A DNA stretch of 61,554 nt, the filler included, from Gonapodya sp. JEL0774 (taxonomy: Eukaryota): assembly GCA_027604505.1 (NCBI GenBank). It is 6 parts of 6 records of this genome, joined end to end, with 100 filler letters (N's around TTAATTAATTAA, not from the genome) between each part and the next. Parts side by side here need not be neighbours in the genome. Positions count along the whole stretch, not along the records: positions 51,436 to 61,554 come from JADIIX010000390.1; 5 more parts are not named here. The stretch is one strand, 5' to 3'. The position numbers and the translations under genes were made by a program. Shown in pieces: positions 10,105 through 61,554 of the stretch. Within the stretch, counting starts at the first letter, position 1; each line of letters begins with the position of its first letter. The notes below the pieces were generated by a model. It had not been told where the DNA came from and searched no databases. It was given only the letters and a program-made list of their open reading frames with translations.

Positions 10105-10322
10105 TAGTGAGTGTGGGGAGGGTTGGGGGGGGGGGGGGGGGGGGGGCTGTGTGGGGGGGAAGGTTTTGGGGGTGGGTGGTTGTTTGGTTGTTTAGTTTTT
10201 TTTTTTTGTTGGGGGGGGAAGTNNNNNNNNNNNNNNNNNNNNNNNNNNNNNNNNNNNNNNNNNNNNTTAATTAATTAANNNNNNNNNNNNNNNNNNNNNN
10301 NNNNNNNNNNNNNNNNNNNNNN

Positions 10323-20541: not shown

Positions 20542-20656
20542 NNNNNNNNNNNNNNNNNNNNNNNNNNNNNNNNNNNNNNNNNNNNTTAATTAATTAANNN
20601 NNNNNNNNNNNNNNNNNNNNNNNNNNNNNNNNNNNNNNNNNTAGGGATTGATATAG

Positions 20657-30831: not shown

Positions 30832-31386
30832 NNNNNNNNNNNNNNNNNNNNNNNNNNNNNNNNNNNNNNNNNNNNTTAATTAATTAANNNNNNNNNNNNN
30901 NNNNNNNNNNNNNNNNNNNNNNNNNNNNNNNAATGAATGTCACATTACCCAACCACACCGGCGGCACATGAAACATAAAAGTCCCATTTACGGGCTTACA
31001 GAACCACCTGCCATACTCGCAGGCTGTAAAAGTTAATGTACATGCGAGTCACATCTACTGTGCTCTTACCAAACTATTGCGTGCCCCCAAATTTGTCACG
31101 CCGTCTCACGAGGAGAAAAGGGGGCGTAACTATGTAAGCAATGTGCTTTGATTCATCAGCCACCAAATGGACATATTAATGGAAGCTCGAGCAAGTATGT
31201 TATGTGATCGGGGGAAGTTTTGCCGATCAGTGGAACCATTGCCGAACTCATTCTCAAAGGCAGCCATCTTCACCCCTTCTCAGACCCCAACTGACGACAG
31301 TCGACAGTGCCATCAATTTCAGTGGAGTGTGACTTTCAGGGTTTCTAGAAGAGAGGGACTTTCGCTCGTGTGCAACGAAACATAAT

Positions 31387-41095: not shown

Positions 41096-41326
41096 NNNNN
41101 NNNNNNNNNNNNNNNNNNNNNNNNNNNNNNNNNNNNNNNTTAATTAATTAANNNNNNNNNNNNNNNNNNNNNNNNNNNNNNNNNNNNNNNNNNNNACGAG
41201 AGGGCGCACAGAGTCGGCGGGATCTTATCGTTGAATGGCCAGTTCTCACCACCACCCGCCGTGACCCACCTTGCCCTACCCCCCTGTGCCCCCCCCCCAC
41301 CCCCCCCGCCCCCCACCACCCCACAG

Positions 41327-47850: not shown

Positions 47851-50800
47851 TCATTTCTCCCTGAGTTTCTTTCCCGCAAATGGAGTTTGCGCACTTGCTG
47901 AGTACTGCTCTTCAAGCTTCCTCTTCTTTGGTGGTTGGTCCTGTGATTTCTCGTCCCGTTTCTCTCCCTCTGCTTTCACCTTGACCTCTTTCGTCCACTC
48001 CGGCCTAAACTTCGCGAATTCCTTCTCCAGCACTGGCCTGCGAACACGGGGGTCCACGGTTGTGTGCGGTGTGTATGAGGCCGATGTGCTGATCGGCTCG
48101 CTGCATGAGGCTGCTGCGCCTATCGGCTCGTCCGCTTTCTCGAGACCCAGGCCCCAGTGACCAGTTTCCGACTGAACCCACACCACCTCCATGTCCTCTA
48201 AACCATCCTCATCAGGCGTGCGCAACGCATCGACGTCGATGGGGTCAGAGCGAGATCGTTTGTGGCTCGTCGATGCCGTAACTTGCCTTTCTGTCTCACC
48301 TGAGACACGACGTGCGACTGTTTCGTCCACCTCAGATACACGACCGTTGCCGTCAACGAGATCCTCTGTCCTTGTAGCGTCTGGCGTGATCGGAACTGCT
48401 TTGCGTCCACTGAATATCGCTGTGCCTCTGACGTGCCTTCCGACAATTTCGAGTAGATCGATTCCAGTGAGTACGGATATTCGATCAACGTCCGAGAAGG
48501 ACAGCCCGAACTCGGTCAGCACCCTAAGGAGGTGACGGCGCGCTGCTGGGGTTGTGGCCAACGTTCGATCTGTTGCAGGTGACGCGGGGGTGACTGGTCG
48601 CGGATCATGCACACTTTGGTTTCCTGAAGGGGGAGTGTCACGCCGCTCATGCTGCGCTTCACCCTCATAACCAGGAACAGCTTGTGATCCGATATCAAGG
48701 CCCATCTCACCAGACTCTCCCGAAGTTCCAGCCTCTGAGCTATCCTCATCCTCGCTCCGTGACAACTGCGCACTCGGAACAAGCATTTCTTCCTGATCTG
48801 AATTCATGTCGGTGGGACCATTGCCATTCTCTTCCCCGTCAATTCCTGCAGTATGGTTTTGTGGGTCCTCTGTAAGGTCTTGCAGATCTCCATCCGACCG
48901 GCGCTCATCCAACGCACGCTTCACAACTCGCATGAGGACCAGAAGCGCGTCACGATACGTGGTCGAAAGCTCCTTGTGTGCTTCTCGCTCAGCTTTGAAA
49001 TGCACGATGTACTGATGGAGTGAGCAAAAACAGAAACGGACAGTGCAGGATTGCAGAGATTGGAGTTGTGGTTGTGTAAATCGGACAATTGAGAGAATGA
49101 TGAATATTCGAATACATGAACCGAGAAACCTCGGCCACTCGAAACCACACCAAAGTGAATACTCACCGTTCCCAGAAGGTCACACCTGTTGCAATGGGGC
49201 TTCTTGTTTGGGGACGACCCCCCCTGCTCCAACAGCCGGTCCGTACTCTCCTCCGTCGCAGCGTGGGGCCGCGGTGGCTTCGGAGAATCGCTGTTGGGTT
49301 TCCTGGACGATTTCAGTCGCAGGGTTAACCGTGCTGGGGGTGACATGGGTCTCTGGCCGGCGCCAGCGGTTGCTGTTGGGTTGGCTGGGTTGTGACGGGC
49401 CCCAAACATGACGACCGACGCATCTCCTGCGGCAATCTGAACACTGTACGGATCTGGCCCCGGACGCACGTTTACGATTCTGGGCTTCACCGACTTGGGC
49501 ATCTCCCTCTCTGAGTCCGATTCGGAATCGGAGGACGAACCTGCTTGATTCTGCAGCCTGGTGGCAACATCTGCGGCAAATGCAGCGAGGCCAAGGTCCT
49601 TCACAGAGTTGCAGTTCTTACACCGGGATGGAGCTGTCACACTAAGGTTCGTCCGGTTCTGTTGTGGTGGAGGAGGTCCGCGTTCTACCGACGGGATGTA
49701 CAAAGGACGAGCTGCTGGATCCAGCATAGGGTGGGGTTTTGGAAGTACCTCAGGCAAGGGAAATGCGACGAACTTGGTCGTGGTGGGTGCATCGGGAACG
49801 TAGATCACGCTGGTTGTTGAAAGTACGAATTGCGCGAGGGGGGCGTCGATACCAATTTCGCCTGCCTCCCTCAAGGACGACCTGCGGAGCTTCTTCCGAG
49901 CGGCTTTGGAGAGGGACTGAATGTTGTGGGTCCGAATGATTCCATGACCAGGCCCTGCGATGGGTCCGCTGCTGTTGGCAGCATTGGAGAAAGCGTCTGG
50001 TGTGGCTGGGATGAACAAGAACGGACCCGAATCTTGCGGCACCGTGGGCAATGTCATGTTTAATCCTGGAGGGTCTACGAACCCAGCCGCCGGTGTGGTG
50101 GCGGTTGTGGATACGGGTGCAGGACTTGCCAGCGGGTGCATCAGAGTCCCTTCCGGGCCGGTACTCACAGATTGGGTCGTCTCAATTCCCGAGGGCGTGC
50201 TTGAGTGTCGTGCGCCACCGCACCCACCGCGATCATGATACGCCGGCCTTGCATCAGAGCGAGAGCTCGCCCGGGAACCCATCCACAGTGCATTATCTTG
50301 CCTTGATGCGTTTTCCGTTGCAGACCGCCTTGCATCCGAGTGAGAGCTCGCCCGGGGACCCATCCACAGTGGATTATCTTGTCTCGATGAAATTTCCGTT
50401 GTAGACCGCCCAGATACAACTTCCCGATTCCGCTCCACTGCGACCACCCTCCCGACAACAATCTCCTTTCGTGGCACAAGCTGCTGCTGTTGCTGCACCT
50501 GCTTAGAAGCAGGTACCACGGTAGCAGAGCTCGCGGACACATCGAGAGCTGTATCGATTGGGAGTTTCGCAGATAACGCGTCGGCAGGACTGCTTGAACG
50601 GGGGATGTATTGCGCAGCGGTTCTGGCAGGCTTGGTGGCGACAGAGACAGAGCTTGAGGTGAACGTGAATTTACCTTCGGAGTTTCGATGAGTGTGCATA
50701 TTCCCCTCTGTATCAGGCGACTGGTGTGCAACCCAGACAGATGTGGGGGCATGTGTGCGAGGAATGACTGCCTATGCACTTACCGTCAGAGTCTGTTGCG

Positions 50801-51179
50801 CGCCGGTAGCCATAGGAGCAGCTCTTGAGTTATATTGACTCATCTGATTCTGATAATAGGCCTGTATCCAGTACTGTTCGAGCGTTCGTGAATCGAATGG
50901 GAAGCGGTTGGGAACGTCGTGACCAAACTGTTGGGGGATCGGGCCGGTTTGCGAGGCCGGAAACACTTGGTAGGCACCGTGCTGGGGGTACTGGGGGTAC
51001 GAAGCGTACTGGAATGGCATTGCTTGAGAAGCTGGGCTGGGAGGAATGGGTAAAGCGCCAAGACCATGCGGGGGCGGGATAATCTGCCCAGAAGGAGGCA
51101 GCGGGGGCCGAGTCAAGCTTTGCAGTGCTTGCCATCTTTTCTCAGAAGGCAGTGGCGGCGGGGATCTGTTTCTGCTCAT
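47851..51179 (-). CDS. large low-complexity hypothetical protein, multi-exon
   Basis: Long ORFs 50772-51263, 48921-50699 and 47851-49005 can be linked by GT-AG introns. Contains an internal 22-aa duplication (SRQDNPLWMGPRASSHSDAR / SRQDNALWMGSRASSRSDAR), a short coiled segment and basic PPKKRK. Confidence 0.65.
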
Positions 51180-51435
51180 TTGGTTGTTCGTTGGTTGTGA
51201 TCCATCAACCCTGCCAGGGATGACCCAACGGAGGCGGCGCTGAATGTGGGCGGTCGCACTCATGGCACGCGGCTGACCGAAGCCCGTGTGCTCGGTGGCT
51301 CCAGACTCCCCCCGTGTCTACTGTCGGTCGATAATNNNNNNNNNNNNNNNNNNNNNNNNNNNNNNNNNNNNNNNNNNNNTTAATTAATTAANNNNNNNNN
51401 NNNNNNNNNNNNNNNNNNNNNNNNNNNNNNNNNNN

Positions 51436-52934
51436 GAAAGTGCCTTGAATGCGCTTTCACCAGCCTCACCAATCGAGTTGACTGGAGTCAAAGTAGAGGA
51501 GAGAGAAGAGAGAAGAGAGGAGACCGTGTGTGTGAGTCAGACTCAAAAACTCTTGAGCGAGATCGAGCGGGAGGTCACACTCTGATACTCACAACTGAGA
51601 TCGAGCGACATCAAGGTGGAGTTGGTCTTGAGGGCCTCAGCAAGCGCGGTGGCGCCAGCGTCACCGATCGAGTTCCCTGAGAGGAGTAGAGTCAAAGTAG
51701 AGGAGAGAGCATAGGAGAGAGAGCAGAGAGGAGACGGTGTGTGTGTGTGCTCGTGTGGGGGTGTGACAGACTCACCGACTCTTGAGCGAGAGCGAGCGGG
51801 AGTTCACACTCTGATACTCACTATTAAGGTCGAGCAACATCAAGGTGGAGTGGGTCTTGACGGCCTCAGCAAGCGCGCTGGCGCCAGCGTCACCGATCGA
51901 GTTGTCTGCAGTAGTAGAGTCCAGAGGAGAGAGAGGAGAGAGAGGAGACGGTGTGTGTGTGTTTGTGTTCGTGTGGGGGTGAGACAGACTCAGCGACTCT
52001 GGAGGGAGAGCGAGAGGGAGATCACACTCTGAGACTCACAATAAAGGATAAGCGACGTCAAGGTGGAGTTGGTCTTGAGGGCCTCAGCAAGCGCTCTGGC
52101 ACCCGCCTCACCGATTGAGTTCCCTGAGAGGTGTAGAGTCAAAGTAGAGGAGAGAGAGGAGAGAGAGGAGACGGTGTGTGTGTGTGTTTGTGTGGGCGTG
52201 AGACAGACTCAACGACTCTGGAGCGAGAGCGAGAGGGAGATCACACTCTGACACTCACCACTGAGATCGAGCGACGTCAAGGTGGAGTTGGTCTTGACGG
52301 CCTCAGCAAGTGCGCTGGCGCCAGCGTCACTGATCGAGTTCGCTGGAGTCATAGAGTCGAGAGAGAGGAGAGAGGAGATGGCGGTTTGTGAGTGTGTGTG
52401 TCACTCAGCGAGGCTGAGCGAGAGCAAAAGGGAAGTCAACCTCTGATACTCACCATAAAGGTAGAGCAACGTCAAGGTGGAGTTGGTCTTGAGGGCCTCA
52501 GCAAGCGCTCTGGCTCCAGCCTCACCGATCGAGTTCACTGGAGTCAAGAGAGAAGAGAGAGAGGAGAGAGGACAGAGGAGACGGTGCGTGTGTGTGTTCG
52601 TGTGGGGGTGAGACAGACTCAGCGACTCTTGAGTGAGAGCGAGCGAGAGGTCACACTCTGATACTCACCACTGAGATCGAGCGACGTCAAGGTGGAGTTG
52701 GTCTTGAGGGCCTCAGCAAGCGCTCTGGTGCCAGCCTTACCGATCGAGTTCCCTGTGGTTTGGGTGGGCCGGGGTGGTGGTAAAATCATAATTATAGAAG
52801 ACACATTAACATCGCATGTCGTAACTCTCCATACGCCCTGCTGGACTCACCCGTCAATGTTAGGGTCGTGACGGTACTATTGCTTTTGAGCGCGTGGGCG
52901 AGCGCCCTTGCTCCGCCAACTCCAATTGACTTAA
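51436..52934 (-). repeat. tandem exon+intron array encoding 28-aa LRRs (xNSIGxAGAxALAEALKTNSTLxxLxLx)
   Basis: Seven full 84-nt phase-1 exons plus one partial. Most introns are homologous to each other (GTGAGT.TCAGAG.GTGA...GAGTCGCTGAGTCTGTCTCAC...(CA)n...(CT)n...AG). Unit length is ~180-230 bp. Confidence 0.95.
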
Positions 52935-55199
52935 CTTTGGTGGAGGCACGACAGTTGGAGGAGGAGGACAAGGTGAGAAGGGACTAGAGCGTCTACATTA
53001 CCAGACTACTAGGGGAGAGTAGAAACACGCAAATTGAGATACAACGCACAATTCACGTCAAGTTCGGTTTCGTTGTTGGCTATGTCTTGCAGCACCTCGG
53101 TTAAAGCACCTGCCCCGGCAGCTCTGCTTGTGTCTCTGGGAGCTTCCAATAGCAGGTTCGCTATTGTGGAGGCCTCGCGTTAGTACCCAGTGAATTGTGT
53201 GGTGTCTGCCAACTCACCATATTTCCAAGTCTCCAGATCTTTCTCCGATAAAATTCTGGCGGGATCGTCTTCCGGCAGCGTCTTCTCCCGGATATGGTGT
53301 ACACTCTTCAGAAGGGCCATTGCAAGTTCTAACTGCCCTTGGGAAAAGTACGCTCTTGCGAGCGCGTGCTGGGCAGCCAGCAGATCTGGATGGTCTTTCG
53401 AGAGGACTCGTTTCCTAGCAGCAACGACGAGTTTGAGCATGTCCACTGCCTTGTCTACTTGTCCGGTATACTCGTAAGCGAGGGCAAGCTCTTGCTGCGC
53501 CTCTAGCATAGAAATGTCCTGTTGTGTAAGGGCCGGATTTAGAAGACGTTGGAGTGTTTCATCCAGTTGGGCAAGCCAACTCTTTGAGGGCTTCCTGTCC
53601 CCCCCTTCTTGTTTTTGACCTTTCACCACCACAGAAAGTTGTTGTCTTCCAAAGACGCATGCTTGAAGCCATAAAACTGCTTCTGCGAATCGTCCGTCGG
53701 AGTTCAAGCACCGCCCAACCAGAAAACACAGGTCGTGTCTCGGTTCCAGCTCCTTTCCTTCACCACTTCCCAGTACCTTCACGGCGTGCGGGAGGTACTC
53801 CCTCCATCGCTCTCGATTCTCCCAATCATTGGTTGGAAATATTGAGCTGATGTGTGTGATCGCCTCTTCCATCTTTTTCGACGCAAGGCGCTGTGTGCAC
53901 AGCCAGTCCCATGCCGCCAGGTGCACGAGACGGTGGAGATCATACACTTCATCCTCTCTGTTGGTTTCCTCTGAGCGACGTGACACGAATGCGTACCCGA
54001 TGAGGGTATTGATCGCTCCTTCCATTTTCACGGCAGTCCCGGCTGTGGGCAGGATGGTTCGAGGGATGGACTTCCATTCGATACACGACATGAAGCCCAG
54101 GATGTCCGCTGCAAGGGGATTTTCTTGAGTTATCCGCTTGAACGAGACCACCCACGTTTTGGCCACTGTACTTTGGGATTTCTCGTAGTGGGTTTGGTCA
54201 TGGAAGCCTTCGCTTAGGATTTCCGTCTTCTCTTCATCCAGCATTTCCCGATATCTTTTGATTGTAATTGCATTAATATTCAGGTACGCTGCTGCTTGGG
54301 CAATTGCCAGCGGAAGGTTGGTGAGTTCTTTGAGGAGTTTTGTGGTGTTCAACTGATCCTCAAGCAATTCTTTTCTTTTGAGTGATTTCTTGAAAAACTC
54401 TACTGCCTCCTCGTCGCTCATTGCTTCCATATCAATGGTTTCAGCTCTTGCGAGGAATGTTCCGACCTTCAGAGGGCGGGTTGTGAACAGAATGAATCCT
54501 TGTTCACTCTGTGGAAGGTAGTAATCAATACCTCGACCCTGTTCGGTGTTGAACATTATCTCTGCGTCGTCGGCATTGTCTACGATCAAGAGCCACCGTC
54601 CGGCTGCATCCTCGCTCAAATATCGCTTGACAGCCTCCTTTATGTCCTCCGTTGCCCCAGTCGTATGAGAGATGCCAACTTTAATAGCCACCTCCTTGCA
54701 CGCCTGCTCAAAGCTCTCCAAACTGAGCGCAGAAAACCAGAAGATCGAGTAGTCTTGATATGTCTCCTTCACTCTGTACGCAAACTCGAGTGCAACCTGT
54801 GTCTTTCCCACTCCACCGAGTCCCACAAGAGCTGCCCTCTGACAATCCTTATCGTCAAAGAGTTTTCTGTTCAAGGTCGCGAGGACGTGATTCCGTCCCA
54901 CAAACTGTTTGTTCCTCGAAAAGGGAATGTAGTAGTGGGGTGGGGAGGAGCCAGGATTCGCATCAACTCTGGATTGAAAAGCACTGATGACATTCATGAT
55001 ATTGCAGCGGTCACAGGTACGGAAAATAAGCACGCGGAGCCTTGAATGGTGGAGCTTACCTCGAGCCTTGGTTGTTAGAGTTGCCGATGTGAACGCGGCC
55101 ACCTTCAATGTGTTGGGAGTGTATTATTATGTTGGTGACGTTACTCGTCGGTGCATGCGAATTTGGAAAGGTTTGTTGTCCATCATGGGTGGTCAGCAT
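51436..55199 (-). CDS. NLR-like receptor: N-terminal amyloid-like motif - NB-ARC - TPR - RI-type LRR array; 3' truncated
   Basis: Frame-consistent splice model: 55199-55060, 54983-53218, 53160-53050, then 84-nt exons 52934-52851, 52752-52669, 52537-52454, 52342-52259, 52123-52040, 51905-51822, 51676-51593 and partial 51481-51436. Walker A GLGGVGKT, Walker B WLLIVDNAD, ILFTTR, LPLAI, LHRLVH, kinesin-light-chain-type TPRs (HPDLLAAQHALARAY). Confidence 0.85.
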
Positions 55200-55778: not shown

Positions 55779-57080
55779 ATGGACTTCGTATTTCTTGGTT
55801 TCAATCCTTCCTGTCGCGTACTCAGTTTTCAACTCGGTTGGCATCATCATCCGCTGCTCCCCTACCCGGTCTTTCCGTCGTCGTTGCCTACCTCCGGAAG
55901 TCCAAGGATGAATAAAAAGGCCAGAGTGTGTCAATTGGAGCTCGAAACCATTCGTTCGCGACCTGAAACAGCGGGGCTGCGGCTTGCACCAAACGTTCTT
56001 TCAAGAAATCAAGAGCGGGGGACGGCCATCTGGTCTCTGCAAGAAGGAACGCGATGGATTTGAACGAGCTCTCACCCTCGCGTGTAGGGCCACGACGCGT
56101 CACCGGCAATCAAAAGGGGCAAGATATGAGCAATGATTACTCTAGACGATAATGGAAACGCGGGATGCATGACTGGGATCGCATCTTACAGGCTGGATCG
56201 TCTTGCTCGCGACGCATGTGTCTCCTCGGGGTAACAGAGCGTCTTCGGGCTGCAGACAAGACGTTTAATCGCGGCCACTCAACCAGAGAGATCCATGCGA
56301 CGGCTTTTCCCACATGGCTACGAGAAGACTTTGCATATTTTCTTCAACGCACTTCAGTCAGAGATGAAGGTTACGATTGCAAAGAGAGCCAAGGACAGCC
56401 AGTCTCATCTTCGACTTGCTGGTTACTGTACAGGGCTGATTGCACCGCATGGGGAAATCTGGAGTGCTGTGGATCAGACTGGTACATCGTATCGTAGCTA
56501 TTCCACGAGCGACATTCGATCTCAGGTTCTGGCGAAGGAGGAAATCCGTCGAGTGCAGGACGAGCGAGAACATCAGCAACTGAGAGAATCAGAAATCTTT
56601 CACATCATGGTTCTCAAGAAGTTCAATAGACCTTCAAGCACCTCTGAAGTTCAAAGATACCTGCCTCGATCGGAATGTATGTGAATTATCGCGGCAACGA
56701 CCCAATGGCTTGACGTGCCACTTTCGTTCGTGTAATGAAGTTCCACCTCGCCAGAATGACCAGAGACGAGCTGGATGCTCTTTCCGAAGCCGCCGATTTG
56801 CGAGCCGCGGAGTTGGAGGTCGCAAAGAAGGAAGTCGGCGTTTTCTTGCGACCGGAGTGGAGTGGATGTAATTGGAAGAAGGAGCCGCAGGGAGGGGCGG
56901 CGAATGGTGGGTGGGCAGTTCGTGTTGTTGGCGTTGCCAGAGCTTCAACATCACATCAGACGGTCTTCTGCTACCCACCTCGCGGGAACCCACCTTGGTA
57001 ACACCTATCCTACGAAATAACACAGAGTCCATTGATGCGTGAAAGGCTCGGAGGATCATTTTTGTCCACCTGAGGTGAGC
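55779..57080 (+). pseudogene. possible degenerate gene (helical N-terminus plus kinase-like remnants), divergent from the NLR
   Basis: Fragmented frames: AAPLPGLSVVVA, NKKARVCQLELETI, KEEIRRVQDEREH, GVFLRPEWSG...GWAVRVV, EPTLVTPILRN. Many stops and frameshifts. Confidence 0.25.
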
Positions 57081-59185: not shown

Positions 59186-61554
59186 TCACTGCACGGTGAA
59201 TGACACGACTACGTGCCCAAACGGCTGTGGAGAACTCACCAGCAACCCCATCCTCCACCTCCTCCACCTTGACGTCATCCCGTCCAGAAGACCAAGCCCT
59301 CCACCCTCCTTGTTCGATTCAGACTCCGCCACGATCCCCAAGAGCGAAGAATCCAGCGAAGGGAATGGAAGCGCGGTGAGCGCACCTGATACGAGGAGCG
59401 GTGTTGGTCGGTGGAGCGGATGTTCGACATCGTCCGTGTCAGGATAAGCGAGAGGAGAATCTAAAAACATATCGGAACAAAGAAAGCAACGCGGGAAAAT
59501 GAGTACTTCCAAAATCCGGTGTGTGTCAGCACAACTAGAACAGTGGCACGTACCATCGTCCTACGAACCCCTCCTTGTCCCGGCCCAAACCATGACGGAG
59601 TACCCACATACTCATTCCCCGTTCCGTTGGCTTCCCTCCCATCCAGCCCGTCCTCGTCCATCATGTTCACACTCCCGTCACTCCTCGCTCCCCTCTTCTT
59701 GCTCTGCTTCCTCCCGTCAACTTTGCAAACGTCCACTGAAGGAAGTTCCGTTTCGGGGAGTAGAATGCCCGGGATTGGAGGTGGAGGCGGCTGTGGGGGT
59801 GGCACAGTTGTCGCCGATTGTGATACTGCTCCAGCTCCCGACACCCCGGACACTTCCAACTCAGTCCGTCCAGTGTCCACACCGGCATCCCCTTCCACAC
59901 TCCTCTCCCCATCGCTCAACCTCGGACTCGGACGCATCTTAGCCTCCACAGTCTCCCCCCCTCCCTCCATCTCACCACTGGCCTTCTGCTCCACGGCCCC
60001 GCTCCCGTTCCACCCAGCCACGAACCCCATCACCATTGTCAACGACATGAAATTGAAAGTGGACACTCCGATCCCAGCGTCCCGTACTCGCACGGACCGT
60101 GATGTTCCTCTTGGTGTGGTTCTGTAGGGACGTGATCCGTCTCGCCATCGTCGCCGTGTCTTGGGGACCATCGCCGTTGCTCCGGGGTTGGTCGGCGCAC
60201 TGGATGTGGACGTGCGCGATGGAGACGGCTACGGTTGTTTCAAATGCCCCGAAGCGCGGTACGGGAACGAGGAGGGCAGTCTGGCACCCCAGGCAATGAC
60301 CACTTGTGGGAGTAGGCGCTGACGCCACGGAGGCGTGCGACTCCTTGGACCGGCAGGGTTCGAGCGTGTTGAGGAGGGACTCGAGGATGGTGGTGCGAGC
60401 GGCGGTTGGGGTTTGTGTCGGACTGGGCGGCGTGGGTGTCTCCAGGCGTCAGTGTCAGTGTGAGATCGTCCACCCTGGCCAACTCGTCTTCATTGTCGTC
60501 ATTGTCCGTCGTGGTGGGCTCCGACTTGGTGTCACTGCTCGCCACGTTGGCCATCTGCACCAACGCCACCTGTACCAAACTACTGAGCCGGTGCTGTGGT
60601 GCCGCTCCCCCACCTCCAACACCCGACACCGTCGACGCAGACACATTCGACACAGGCCTTCTGATTACGTTCCCACCGCCGCCACCGTCGCAATGGTGAC
60701 CATGTGGGCCGCTACGGGGAACCTCGCGCCTGTGATCGTGTCTGTGTACGACGGACCCGACGGCGACGAGCCTGGCACACGCGATCGTGTCTGTGTACGA
60801 CACACCAGACTACGACGAGCTTGTCGACATGATCGAGAACAATGGACCACGATGAGCTTGTGCACACGGCCGAGGACGCTGACGCAGTGGTTGCGAGCGG
60901 GGTGAGCGAGTGGGACGAGAGGAGGGAGGCGGAGGGGAAGGGGGTCCAGGTGTTGGAAGCGGGTCGAGGTGGTGGCTTGGGTCAGCGACGCCGGGTCTGC
61001 ATCATTTGAGGATAAGGAATCAGTTGGGTAAGTCGTACACATCCACCACCAACCTGACACAGCCCACCAACTTACGCGTGGTCGTCCAACTCCATGCCTC
61101 ATCCCCCCGATTTCGTGCCCATCCCTCCCCCTCCCCCTCTCGGCAGGAGATAAGGGGGGTCGGGGTGGTTGGGGTGGTTGGGGTGGTGGGTATGGACGGA
61201 ACGTTGAAGGAGGGGGAGGAGGTGGTTAGGGAGGAGACGATGGTGGCGACAATGGATGTGTACGCCCACAAGGCGGAGGGGTTGGGGGAGGTGGTCGGTG
61301 TACGGGGCCGCACGAGGTACGGAAGCGCCGAAGCGCCGCCGACATGTTGGACTCTAGGAACCTAGACAATCCCGATCCATAGGACGACTTGAGCTGGTCC
61401 CTGTCCCTATCCACCACAACCGCGGCGCCTGCCGGGGTGGACCACGACCTTCCGTCCTTTGACAACCTCAGTTCCACCATCGCCATACTCTTAAGGTTCG
61501 GGCAACGAGGGGGGAGGGGGGGGGGGGGGACCCGAGTGGTTGGGGTGGGGACAG
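59186..61554 (-). CDS. multi-exon hypothetical protein, low complexity, 5' truncated
   Basis: Overlapping long ORFs (59186-59512, 59461-60171, 59972-60328, 60240-60803, 61020-61313) with GT-AG boundaries. No family recognised. Confidence 0.4.

Follow-up and report, generated by a model that had tools for sequence, protein, structure and literature searches.

The locus described here raises the question of whether a fungus may carry a receptor with a nucleotide-binding site followed by leucine-rich repeats (NBS-LRR), a layout that publications from 2010 up to a 2025 review describe as missing from the fungal genomes they covered. The last contig (51436-61554) of a 61,554-nt stretch of DNA, called the window below, carries the locus on its minus strand; the DNA comes from Gonapodya sp. 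JEL0774, a monoblepharid, which is a zoosporic and not a dikaryan fungus. A long open reading frame (ORF) coding for NB-ARC and TPR domains, identical in sequence to the partial NCBI model HDU93_006545 (P0001), is followed there by an array of LRR exons that continues past the contig end. The best reading, put forward with moderate confidence, is that of a single spliced NB-ARC-TPR-LRR receptor with the LRRs as the sensor; a fusion of the two parts in any form is considered quite probable. The locus is probably one transcription unit, coding for an intracellular immune receptor about 890 residues long.

Gene model of the locus

The model comprises 11 exons. From the ATG at 55199 it runs through 878 codons without a stop, the exons measuring 140, 1751 and 111 nt, then seven times 84 nt, then 46 nt of a truncated last one. 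Every junction downstream of exon 2 is in phase 1. The parts of the model are as follows:

55060..55199, minus strand: exon 1, 46 codons, without a folded effector domain, HRAM-like motif in codons 23-40
54969..55059, minus strand: intron 1, 91 nt, GTAAGC...CAG, with an alternative acceptor at 54984 that is likewise in frame
53218..54968, minus strand: exon 2, NB-ARC, winged helix, helical arm and two TPR units (from Pfam, motifs and a paralogue model)
53161..53217, minus strand: intron 2, 57 nt, phase 1, GTGAGT...TAG, TACTAAC branch point holding the in-frame TAA
53050..53160, minus strand: exon 3, 111 nt, linker that probably forms the N-cap rung of the LRR solenoid (from paralogue identity and model)
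52935..53049, minus strand: intron 3, 115 nt, GTGCGT...AAG, weakest splice in the model
52851..52934, minus strand: exon 4, 84 nt, first LRR, of a distinct type that matches the first LRR of both paralogues
51593..52752, minus strand: exons 5-10, six 84-nt LRR exons of the ribonuclease-inhibitor (RI) type, copies of an exon+intron unit
52752-52669, 52537-52454 and 52342-52259, minus strand: exons 5, 6 and 7, 84 nt each
52123-52040, 51905-51822 and 51676-51593, minus strand: exons 8, 9 and 10, 84 nt each
51436..51481, minus strand: exon 11, probable last (capping) repeat, truncated by the contig end, aligning with the last repeat of a paralogue

The initial annotation had placed a stop, a donor at 53217 and an acceptor at 53161 at the end of the ORF; all three lie exactly there, and the frame stays open through the whole model. 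The series of phase-1 LRR exons that it had described after the 111-nt exon is present as seven complete exons of 84 nt, plus the first 46 nt of another. Its ORF length of 642 residues holds if intron 1 (55059-54969) is spliced out, but the unspliced ORF from the ATG at 54997 has 605.

Paralogues of the locus

At the level of DNA the arrangement is confirmed, and it is found again elsewhere in the JEL0774 genome. Relatives of the ORF were analysed as the best 120 of 1877 matches, of which 5 come from JEL0774, 35 carry other organism names and 80 are unnamed. Within this set LRRs occur only in two paralogues, P0002 (85% identity, on a contig of 12.1 kb) and P0003 (76%, complete, 793 residues, on a contig of 39.9 kb), and in none of the 115 non-Gonapodya relatives, which are 38-50% identical to the ORF. 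Both paralogues contain NB-ARC or AAA_16, TPR and LRR_6 above cut-off, except that the NB-ARC of P0003 scores 20 bits for a cut-off of 23.5. The combination claimed for the locus, NB-ARC, TPR and LRR_6 in one predicted chain, is therefore also that of P0002 and P0003. The order of a linker core, a distinct first repeat and standard repeats is common to all three loci. Because three contigs share one part order, a chimeric assembly is unlikely.

This bears on a broader alternative, that the contigs are non-fungal or otherwise foreign to the assembly, or that the junction is misassembled, which is judged very unlikely. It would fit with the fragmented state of the assembly, with the 0 Pfam matches at E 0.001 among the other long frames of the contig, which leave it with no anchoring gene, and with the lack of any G. 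prolifera protein among the best 120 matches, a point that counts against the receptor as well; JEL0774 is treated as the sister species of G. prolifera in a preprint (10.1101/2024.01.07.573240). Opposed to it are the order repeated on three contigs and the splice signals, which agree with those of a housekeeping gene in the window. Tetranucleotide composition correlates with the other five contigs at r 0.79-0.84, compared with -0.39 to 0.63 for 7 of 13 metagenomic loci, and fungi account for 35 of the 35 named non-Gonapodya NB-ARC relatives and for 60 of the best 120 LRR matches. The fungal source of the contig, on which the initial annotation had relied, is borne out by the fungal relatives, the NCBI model and the taxonomy of Gonapodya. 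At the 13 metagenomic loci, which are 41-46% identical to the ORF, no LRR match was found nearby, and the Atlas, which covers large clusters only, returned NB-ARC-TPR clusters and no LRR families in 10 rows.

Predicted splicing over the embedded stop

Whether the ORF and the LRR array form one chain depends first on intron 2. It has a GTGAGT donor and a CTAAC 23 nt upstream of the TAG acceptor, it is 57 nt long, and its removal keeps the frame; the in-frame TAA (53182-53180) lies inside a perfect TACTAAC (53185-53179). A donor-branch-acceptor pattern of this kind occurs once in the window for 1.25 expected, and at least once in 63 of 100 shuffled sequences. Since the pattern is thus common by chance window-wide, only its placement over the stop, with the frame kept, is telling, and the chance of both is estimated at about 1 in 1000 per 100-nt neighbourhood. 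GTGAGT is also the donor of 8 of the 10 introns of the model. The adenosylhomocysteinase gene on another contig of the window (30610-28440, minus strand), complete with 7 introns and 423 open codons, was used as a control. Its introns measure 80-246 nt, four of the seven have GTGAGT donors and one has an AAG acceptor; donors, acceptors and intron lengths of the locus agree with it.

The same junctions would allow a short NB-ARC-TPR protein to be the working product, through retention of intron 2 or failure of intron 3 splicing, with the LRR array as a neighbouring or residual element that is not co-translated. Several observations speak for such a product or against the fused receptor. Intron 3 is the weakest link of the model, with a GTGCGT donor, an AAG acceptor and no branch-point match. 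The length of intron 2 is divisible by three, and its pattern is not rare window-wide. P0001 uses the intron 2 splice but ends in exon 3, and is marked partial; a further paralogue, P0004 (82% identity), is modelled to end at the same intron-embedded stop and has no LRR. P0002 and P0003 are gene predictions, which show adjacency in the DNA and not splicing, and P0003 is without about 30 residues that include sensor-1, so that it may be damaged or mis-modelled.

A separate LRR gene would, on the other hand, have neither a start codon nor room for a promoter. Without a splice, the LRR frame cannot be reached from any ATG between 53300 and exon 4, the two present there opening 19 codons out of frame and one codon, and the spacing from the TAA stop to exon 3 is only 19 nt. 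Five common A/T-rich end or TATA motifs were all absent from 53300 to the contig end, such signals being loose in fungi. The linker and LRR order is conserved in three loci, and the framework codons of the repeats, discussed below, have fewer nonsynonymous than synonymous differences. The short product is regarded as unlikely. The C-terminus of the P0004 model reads through the intron-2 donor and branch point, and that locus may carry unannotated LRR exons.

The LRR array

In the single-receptor reading, exon 3 leads into the repeats. The initial annotation had called this exon a degenerate LRR. It is only weakly LRR-like: its score on a profile of 600 repeats is 5.6 bits, a level that 1 of 500 shuffles attains, compared with 39-57 bits for real repeats. 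Its core is identical in 18 of 22 residues to P0002 and in 15 of 22 to P0003, and its equivalent forms a helix and a strand in the P0003 model. Exon 3 alone (36 residues) had no match among 1.84 billion representatives, and a comparison with proteins of less than 345 residues gave 3 candidates and 0 matches. Exon 4 shares 20/27 and 14/27 residues with the first LRR of the two paralogues.

Exons 5-10 are 80-92% identical to each other at the nucleotide level and are flanked by homologous introns of 98-145 nt, the unit of duplication being exon plus intron. Because exon 11 aligns with the last repeat of the complete P0003, the sequence suggests that the array is probably almost whole. The assignment of the repeats to the RI type was upheld by the 84-nt exons, which code for 28 residues, by LRR_6 in the paralogues (43 and 80 bits), by the ribonuclease-inhibitor-like best matches and by the modelled strand and helix. 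The repeats are closest to proteins of the Mortierellaceae, which make up 60 of the best 120 matches, with up to 22 of 27 residues identical.

A single residue occupies 17 of the 28 codon positions across exons 5-10, and the variation gathers at the strand codons 23, 25, 27 and 28 of each repeat. At these four, the proportion of nonsynonymous differences (pN) is 0.47 and that of synonymous differences (pS) 0.35, while for the other 24 (framework) codons pN is 0.073 and pS 0.137; these are uncorrected values from repeats that are not independent, and the strand positions were picked after inspection. The codon that is split by the intron codes for six different residues in the six repeats.

The NB-ARC switch and the proposed TPR arm

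Exon 2 contains the NB-ARC domain (about 54880-54221), with a Pfam E-value of 7e-13 and 48.8 bits for a cut-off of 23.5. All five motifs considered, Walker A, Walker B, sensor-1, GLPL-like and the MHD-like winged-helix histidine, are intact. The Pfam search gave no match to NACHT at E 0.1 and no family match to TIR or coiled coil. The NB-ARC is followed by TPR_10 (6e-16) with two canonical units at about 53506-53261. Two features of the NOD-like receptors (NLRs) and of signal transduction ATPases with numerous domains (STAND) are present, a P-loop domain with intact motifs and C-terminal repeats that form a superstructure (TPR_10 and the LRR exons). At about 53640-53540, the first TPR-like hairpin has an insertion whose length here and in P0003 exceeds that in P0002 and P0004 by 16 residues, in a region of low model confidence.

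The two TPR units compare with a median of 6 in the 115 non-Gonapodya relatives, by a pattern count that comes out too low for P0119, a TPR-only relative from Gonapodya with 48% identity. Because of this reduction, it is more likely that the LRRs replace the sensor than that they add a second one, the TPRs remaining as an arm, and the two sensor types of the initial annotation are not supported. A true fusion in which both the TPR and the LRR parts bind ligand is quite unlikely. Both TPR_10 units are intact and match the solved Podospora TPR array, as that reading would have it, but the TPR run has one third of the usual length, its two units are not near-identical copies, and the variation among paralogues and repeats sits on the LRR strand.

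Predicted structure

The AlphaFold model of P0003 has a mean predicted local distance difference test score of 80.7 and a predicted template modelling score of 0.64. It was obtained from an alignment of 50 rows that mixes 40 NB-ARC-TPR with 9 LRR-only rows, and it supersedes a single-sequence model that scored 43 on the former measure. In this model the NB-ARC and winged helix are followed by about five helical hairpins and then by an unbroken LRR solenoid, which begins with the helix and strand of the linker exon. The best solved match for residues 503-589 is the Podospora TPR array, and for residues 636-776 ribonuclease-inhibitor-like repeats. Foldseek ranks NOD2 and NLRPs at the top for the whole model, with whole-chain TM-scores of about 0.2; this ranking reflects domain order and not a common overall shape.

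Exon 1 and the proposed mechanism

Exon 1 contains an HRAM-like amyloid signalling motif in codons 23-40 (about 55133-55080). The HRAM motif is described by G19, hydrophobic residues at 5, 8, 10, 16 and 18, R/K at 15 and N/Q/H at 3 (PMC4518210). Six of these eight rules fit exon 1 (positions 3, 5, 15, 16, 18 and 19), a level reached by 2.1% of shuffles. An amyloid role of the exon is weakened by several results: positions 8 and 10 fail, the Pfam HET-S score (E=0.034, 14.5 bits) is below the cut-off of 24.3, no solved structure matched at E 10, and no HeLo-type partner was found on the contig, which extends 6.3 kb on the upstream side and is cut by its end downstream. A partner gene of HeLo or HeLo-like type, carrying the motif in doubled form, usually lies next to the receptor gene in HRAM systems. 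The 11 upstream stretches examined among the 13 metagenomic loci contained no HRAM-like pattern.

The NCBI models of P0003 and P0119 read through the intron-1 donor at their N-terminus. After a shift of one base, their starts fit an R-hydrophobic-x-hydrophobic-G core 12 and 13 codons before the donor; in random 16-mers such a core has a chance of 0.8% at a fixed place and 8.5% anywhere. An amyloid-like exon was probably missed in the annotation of both, as far as these sequences indicate.

By analogy with STAND receptors, a ligand on the concave LRR face would release the ADP-bound NB-ARC, which would then exchange its nucleotide and oligomerise. The two TPR units and the preceding helices would form the arm that links switch and sensor. 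The chances are about even that, on oligomerisation, the HRAM-like motifs encoded by exon 1 come together as an amyloid seed which activates a separate, putative HeLo-type cell-death protein. Such a motif seeds a separate effector in the NWD2/HET-S system (PMC5485727).

Origin of the parts

The five Gonapodya NB-ARCs form one group, with a support of 0.988 in an unrooted tree of 120 rows and 94/75 in a rooted one. In the rooted tree, which has 12 distant prokaryotic rows as its root, leaves out the 80 unnamed rows and contains no basidiomycete or other chytrid row, Gonapodya is the sister (94/75) of the 35 named ascomycete rows (95/76), all of which we take to be Pezizomycotina. A position of the Gonapodya NB-ARC nested inside the Pezizomycotina was considered and rejected, because the rooted tree gives the sister position instead; the unrooted tree has no support around the Gonapodya clade. 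Prokaryotic relatives from 80 loci reach only 23-39% identity, and a direct bacterial source therefore appears unlikely from sequence comparison. We lean towards lateral gain in view of the closeness to the Pezizomycotina, of the HRAM-like motif and of best matches that include no basidiomycete or chytrid name, although the chance of a gain from ascomycetes is put near even.

The history may have been that a member of the Gonapodya NB-ARC-TPR family lost most of its TPRs and acquired an intron-rich array of RI-type LRRs by way of a phase-1 intron, and that the fused gene was duplicated afterwards. With symmetric phase-1 exons, repeats could be gained, lost or skipped without a break of frame, and the codon split by each intron is at the most variable position. 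In its full form the proposal is that an NBS-LRR receptor arose independently in a zoosporic fungus when an RI-type LRR array with one exon per repeat, native to that fungus, was grafted onto an amyloid-signalling NB-ARC-TPR gene of ascomycete type that had been gained laterally. Recognition would be diversified by gain, loss and skipping of exons, each new exon pairing rewriting the intron-split hypervariable codon. Taken as a whole this is a doubtful, if possible, account.

Other features of the window

The window joins six length-sorted JEL0774 contigs of 10,119-10,222 bases each by 100-nt N linkers, so contigs on either side of a linker do not adjoin in the genome.

10223-10322, 20542-20641, 30832-30931, 41096-41195 and 51336-51435: identical artificial 100-nt linkers, evenly spaced, outside the locus

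On the contig of the locus, the frames at 59186-61486 (minus strand) are GC-rich, show intron-like breaks and match no Pfam family; they are probably part of a gene of unknown type. About 1 kb upstream of the NLR, a frame at 56153-56494 (plus strand) has a faint DDE_Tnp_4 score (E 0.14) and may be a transposon remnant; the Atlas gave no support to this assignment. The adjoining contig of the window has long low-complexity frames at 47851-51263 (minus strand), which contain an 81-nt duplication (50246-50410) and match nothing in Pfam.

LRRs in fungal NLRs

The initial annotation had said that fungal NLRs are generally stated to lack LRRs, and on this PMC2939053, PMC4986451, PMC5658179 and PMC12881547 agree. 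The first reports no fungal NB-ARC+LRR or NACHT+LRR in 49 genomes, with the profiles PF00560, PF07723 and PF07725 and not LRR_6, and the second, with 5,616 candidates, found none that carries LRRs, nor any NLR in chytrids. The same absence is stated in PMC5658179, in the 2025 review PMC12881547 and in PMC9815663. A survey of 122 proteomes that included G. prolifera and allowed LRR profiles (PMC12258605) reports no LRR-bearing fungal NLR in the text accessible, and the term 'LRR' is absent from the 17 supplementary files searched. PMC11291939 mentions Gonapodya only for other transferred genes. No published NB-ARC-TPR-LRR protein of a fungus was found in the literature searched, most subscription journals being outside its scope.

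If the proposed receptor is real, the joining of a fungal NB-ARC to RI-type LRRs of animal style would add one more independent origin of the NBS-LRR layout, in a recently duplicated family. Its intermediates would still be visible in the TPR-only paralogue P0119, in the TPR-shortened LRR-bearing copies and in the joining intron. It would open to experiment the way in which a STAND switch takes on a new sensor, as well as the idea that exon-modular repeats provide a fungus with a combinatorial repertoire of receptors.

Comparison with known receptors

Judged from its sequence, the predicted Gonapodya receptor is an NLR by domain content and is neither a plant-type nor an animal-type NBS-LRR. 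With the animal NACHT-LRR receptors (NOD2, NLRC3, NLRP) it shares the 28-residue RI-type repeats and the order from P-loop to LRR, and one exon per repeat is found in those receptors likewise. It differs from them by NB-ARC in the place of NACHT, by the TPR arm in between and by the lack of CARD or PYD. Plant NB-ARC-LRR proteins also have NB-ARC followed by LRRs, whereas the Gonapodya NB-ARC belongs to the fungal and bacterial TPR-linked family, its repeats are of the RI type, and neither TIR nor a coiled coil is present.

The NB-ARC-TPR NLRs of fungi, including those with N-terminal amyloid motifs, are described in Dyrka 2014 (PMC4986451), and 68 amyloid/NB-ARC/TPR genes are given for Sordariales in supplement file 10 of PMC12258605. 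The Gonapodya locus resembles them in the NB-ARC family (38-50% identity), the 42-residue TPR units and the short N-terminus with an HRAM-like motif; it differs in that the TPRs are cut to two units and followed by RI-type LRRs, and in its monoblepharid host.

Receptors with one exon per repeat are described in brown algae (PMC3341825, Zambounis 2012, and PMC13449251). The ROCO-LRR and NB-ARC-TPR genes of PMC3341825 have equal-length symmetric repeat exons and variable concave-face residues similar to those of Gonapodya. The NB-ARC is joined to TPRs and the LRRs to a ROCO GTPase in the algae, whereas NB-ARC, TPR and LRR are in one predicted gene in Gonapodya.

The closest repeats are those of the RI-type LRR proteins of Mortierellaceae, with 21-22 of 27 residues identical to exon 5, but 59 of their 60 matches are without a listed NACHT or NB-ARC. 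P0207 from Linnemannia hyalina, the one fungal name among the 40 of 119 LRR matches with a P-loop, is a gene model in which NACHT, scoring 37 bits and thus above cut-off, precedes at least 10 LRR_6 stretches. Like the Gonapodya locus, this predicted fungal gene combines a STAND domain with LRR_6 repeats, but it has NACHT and is without TPR. The Gonapodya locus would be an exception to the rule and not a new kind of system and, because the NACHT-LRR model of L. hyalina exists, it is probably not the only fungal exception.

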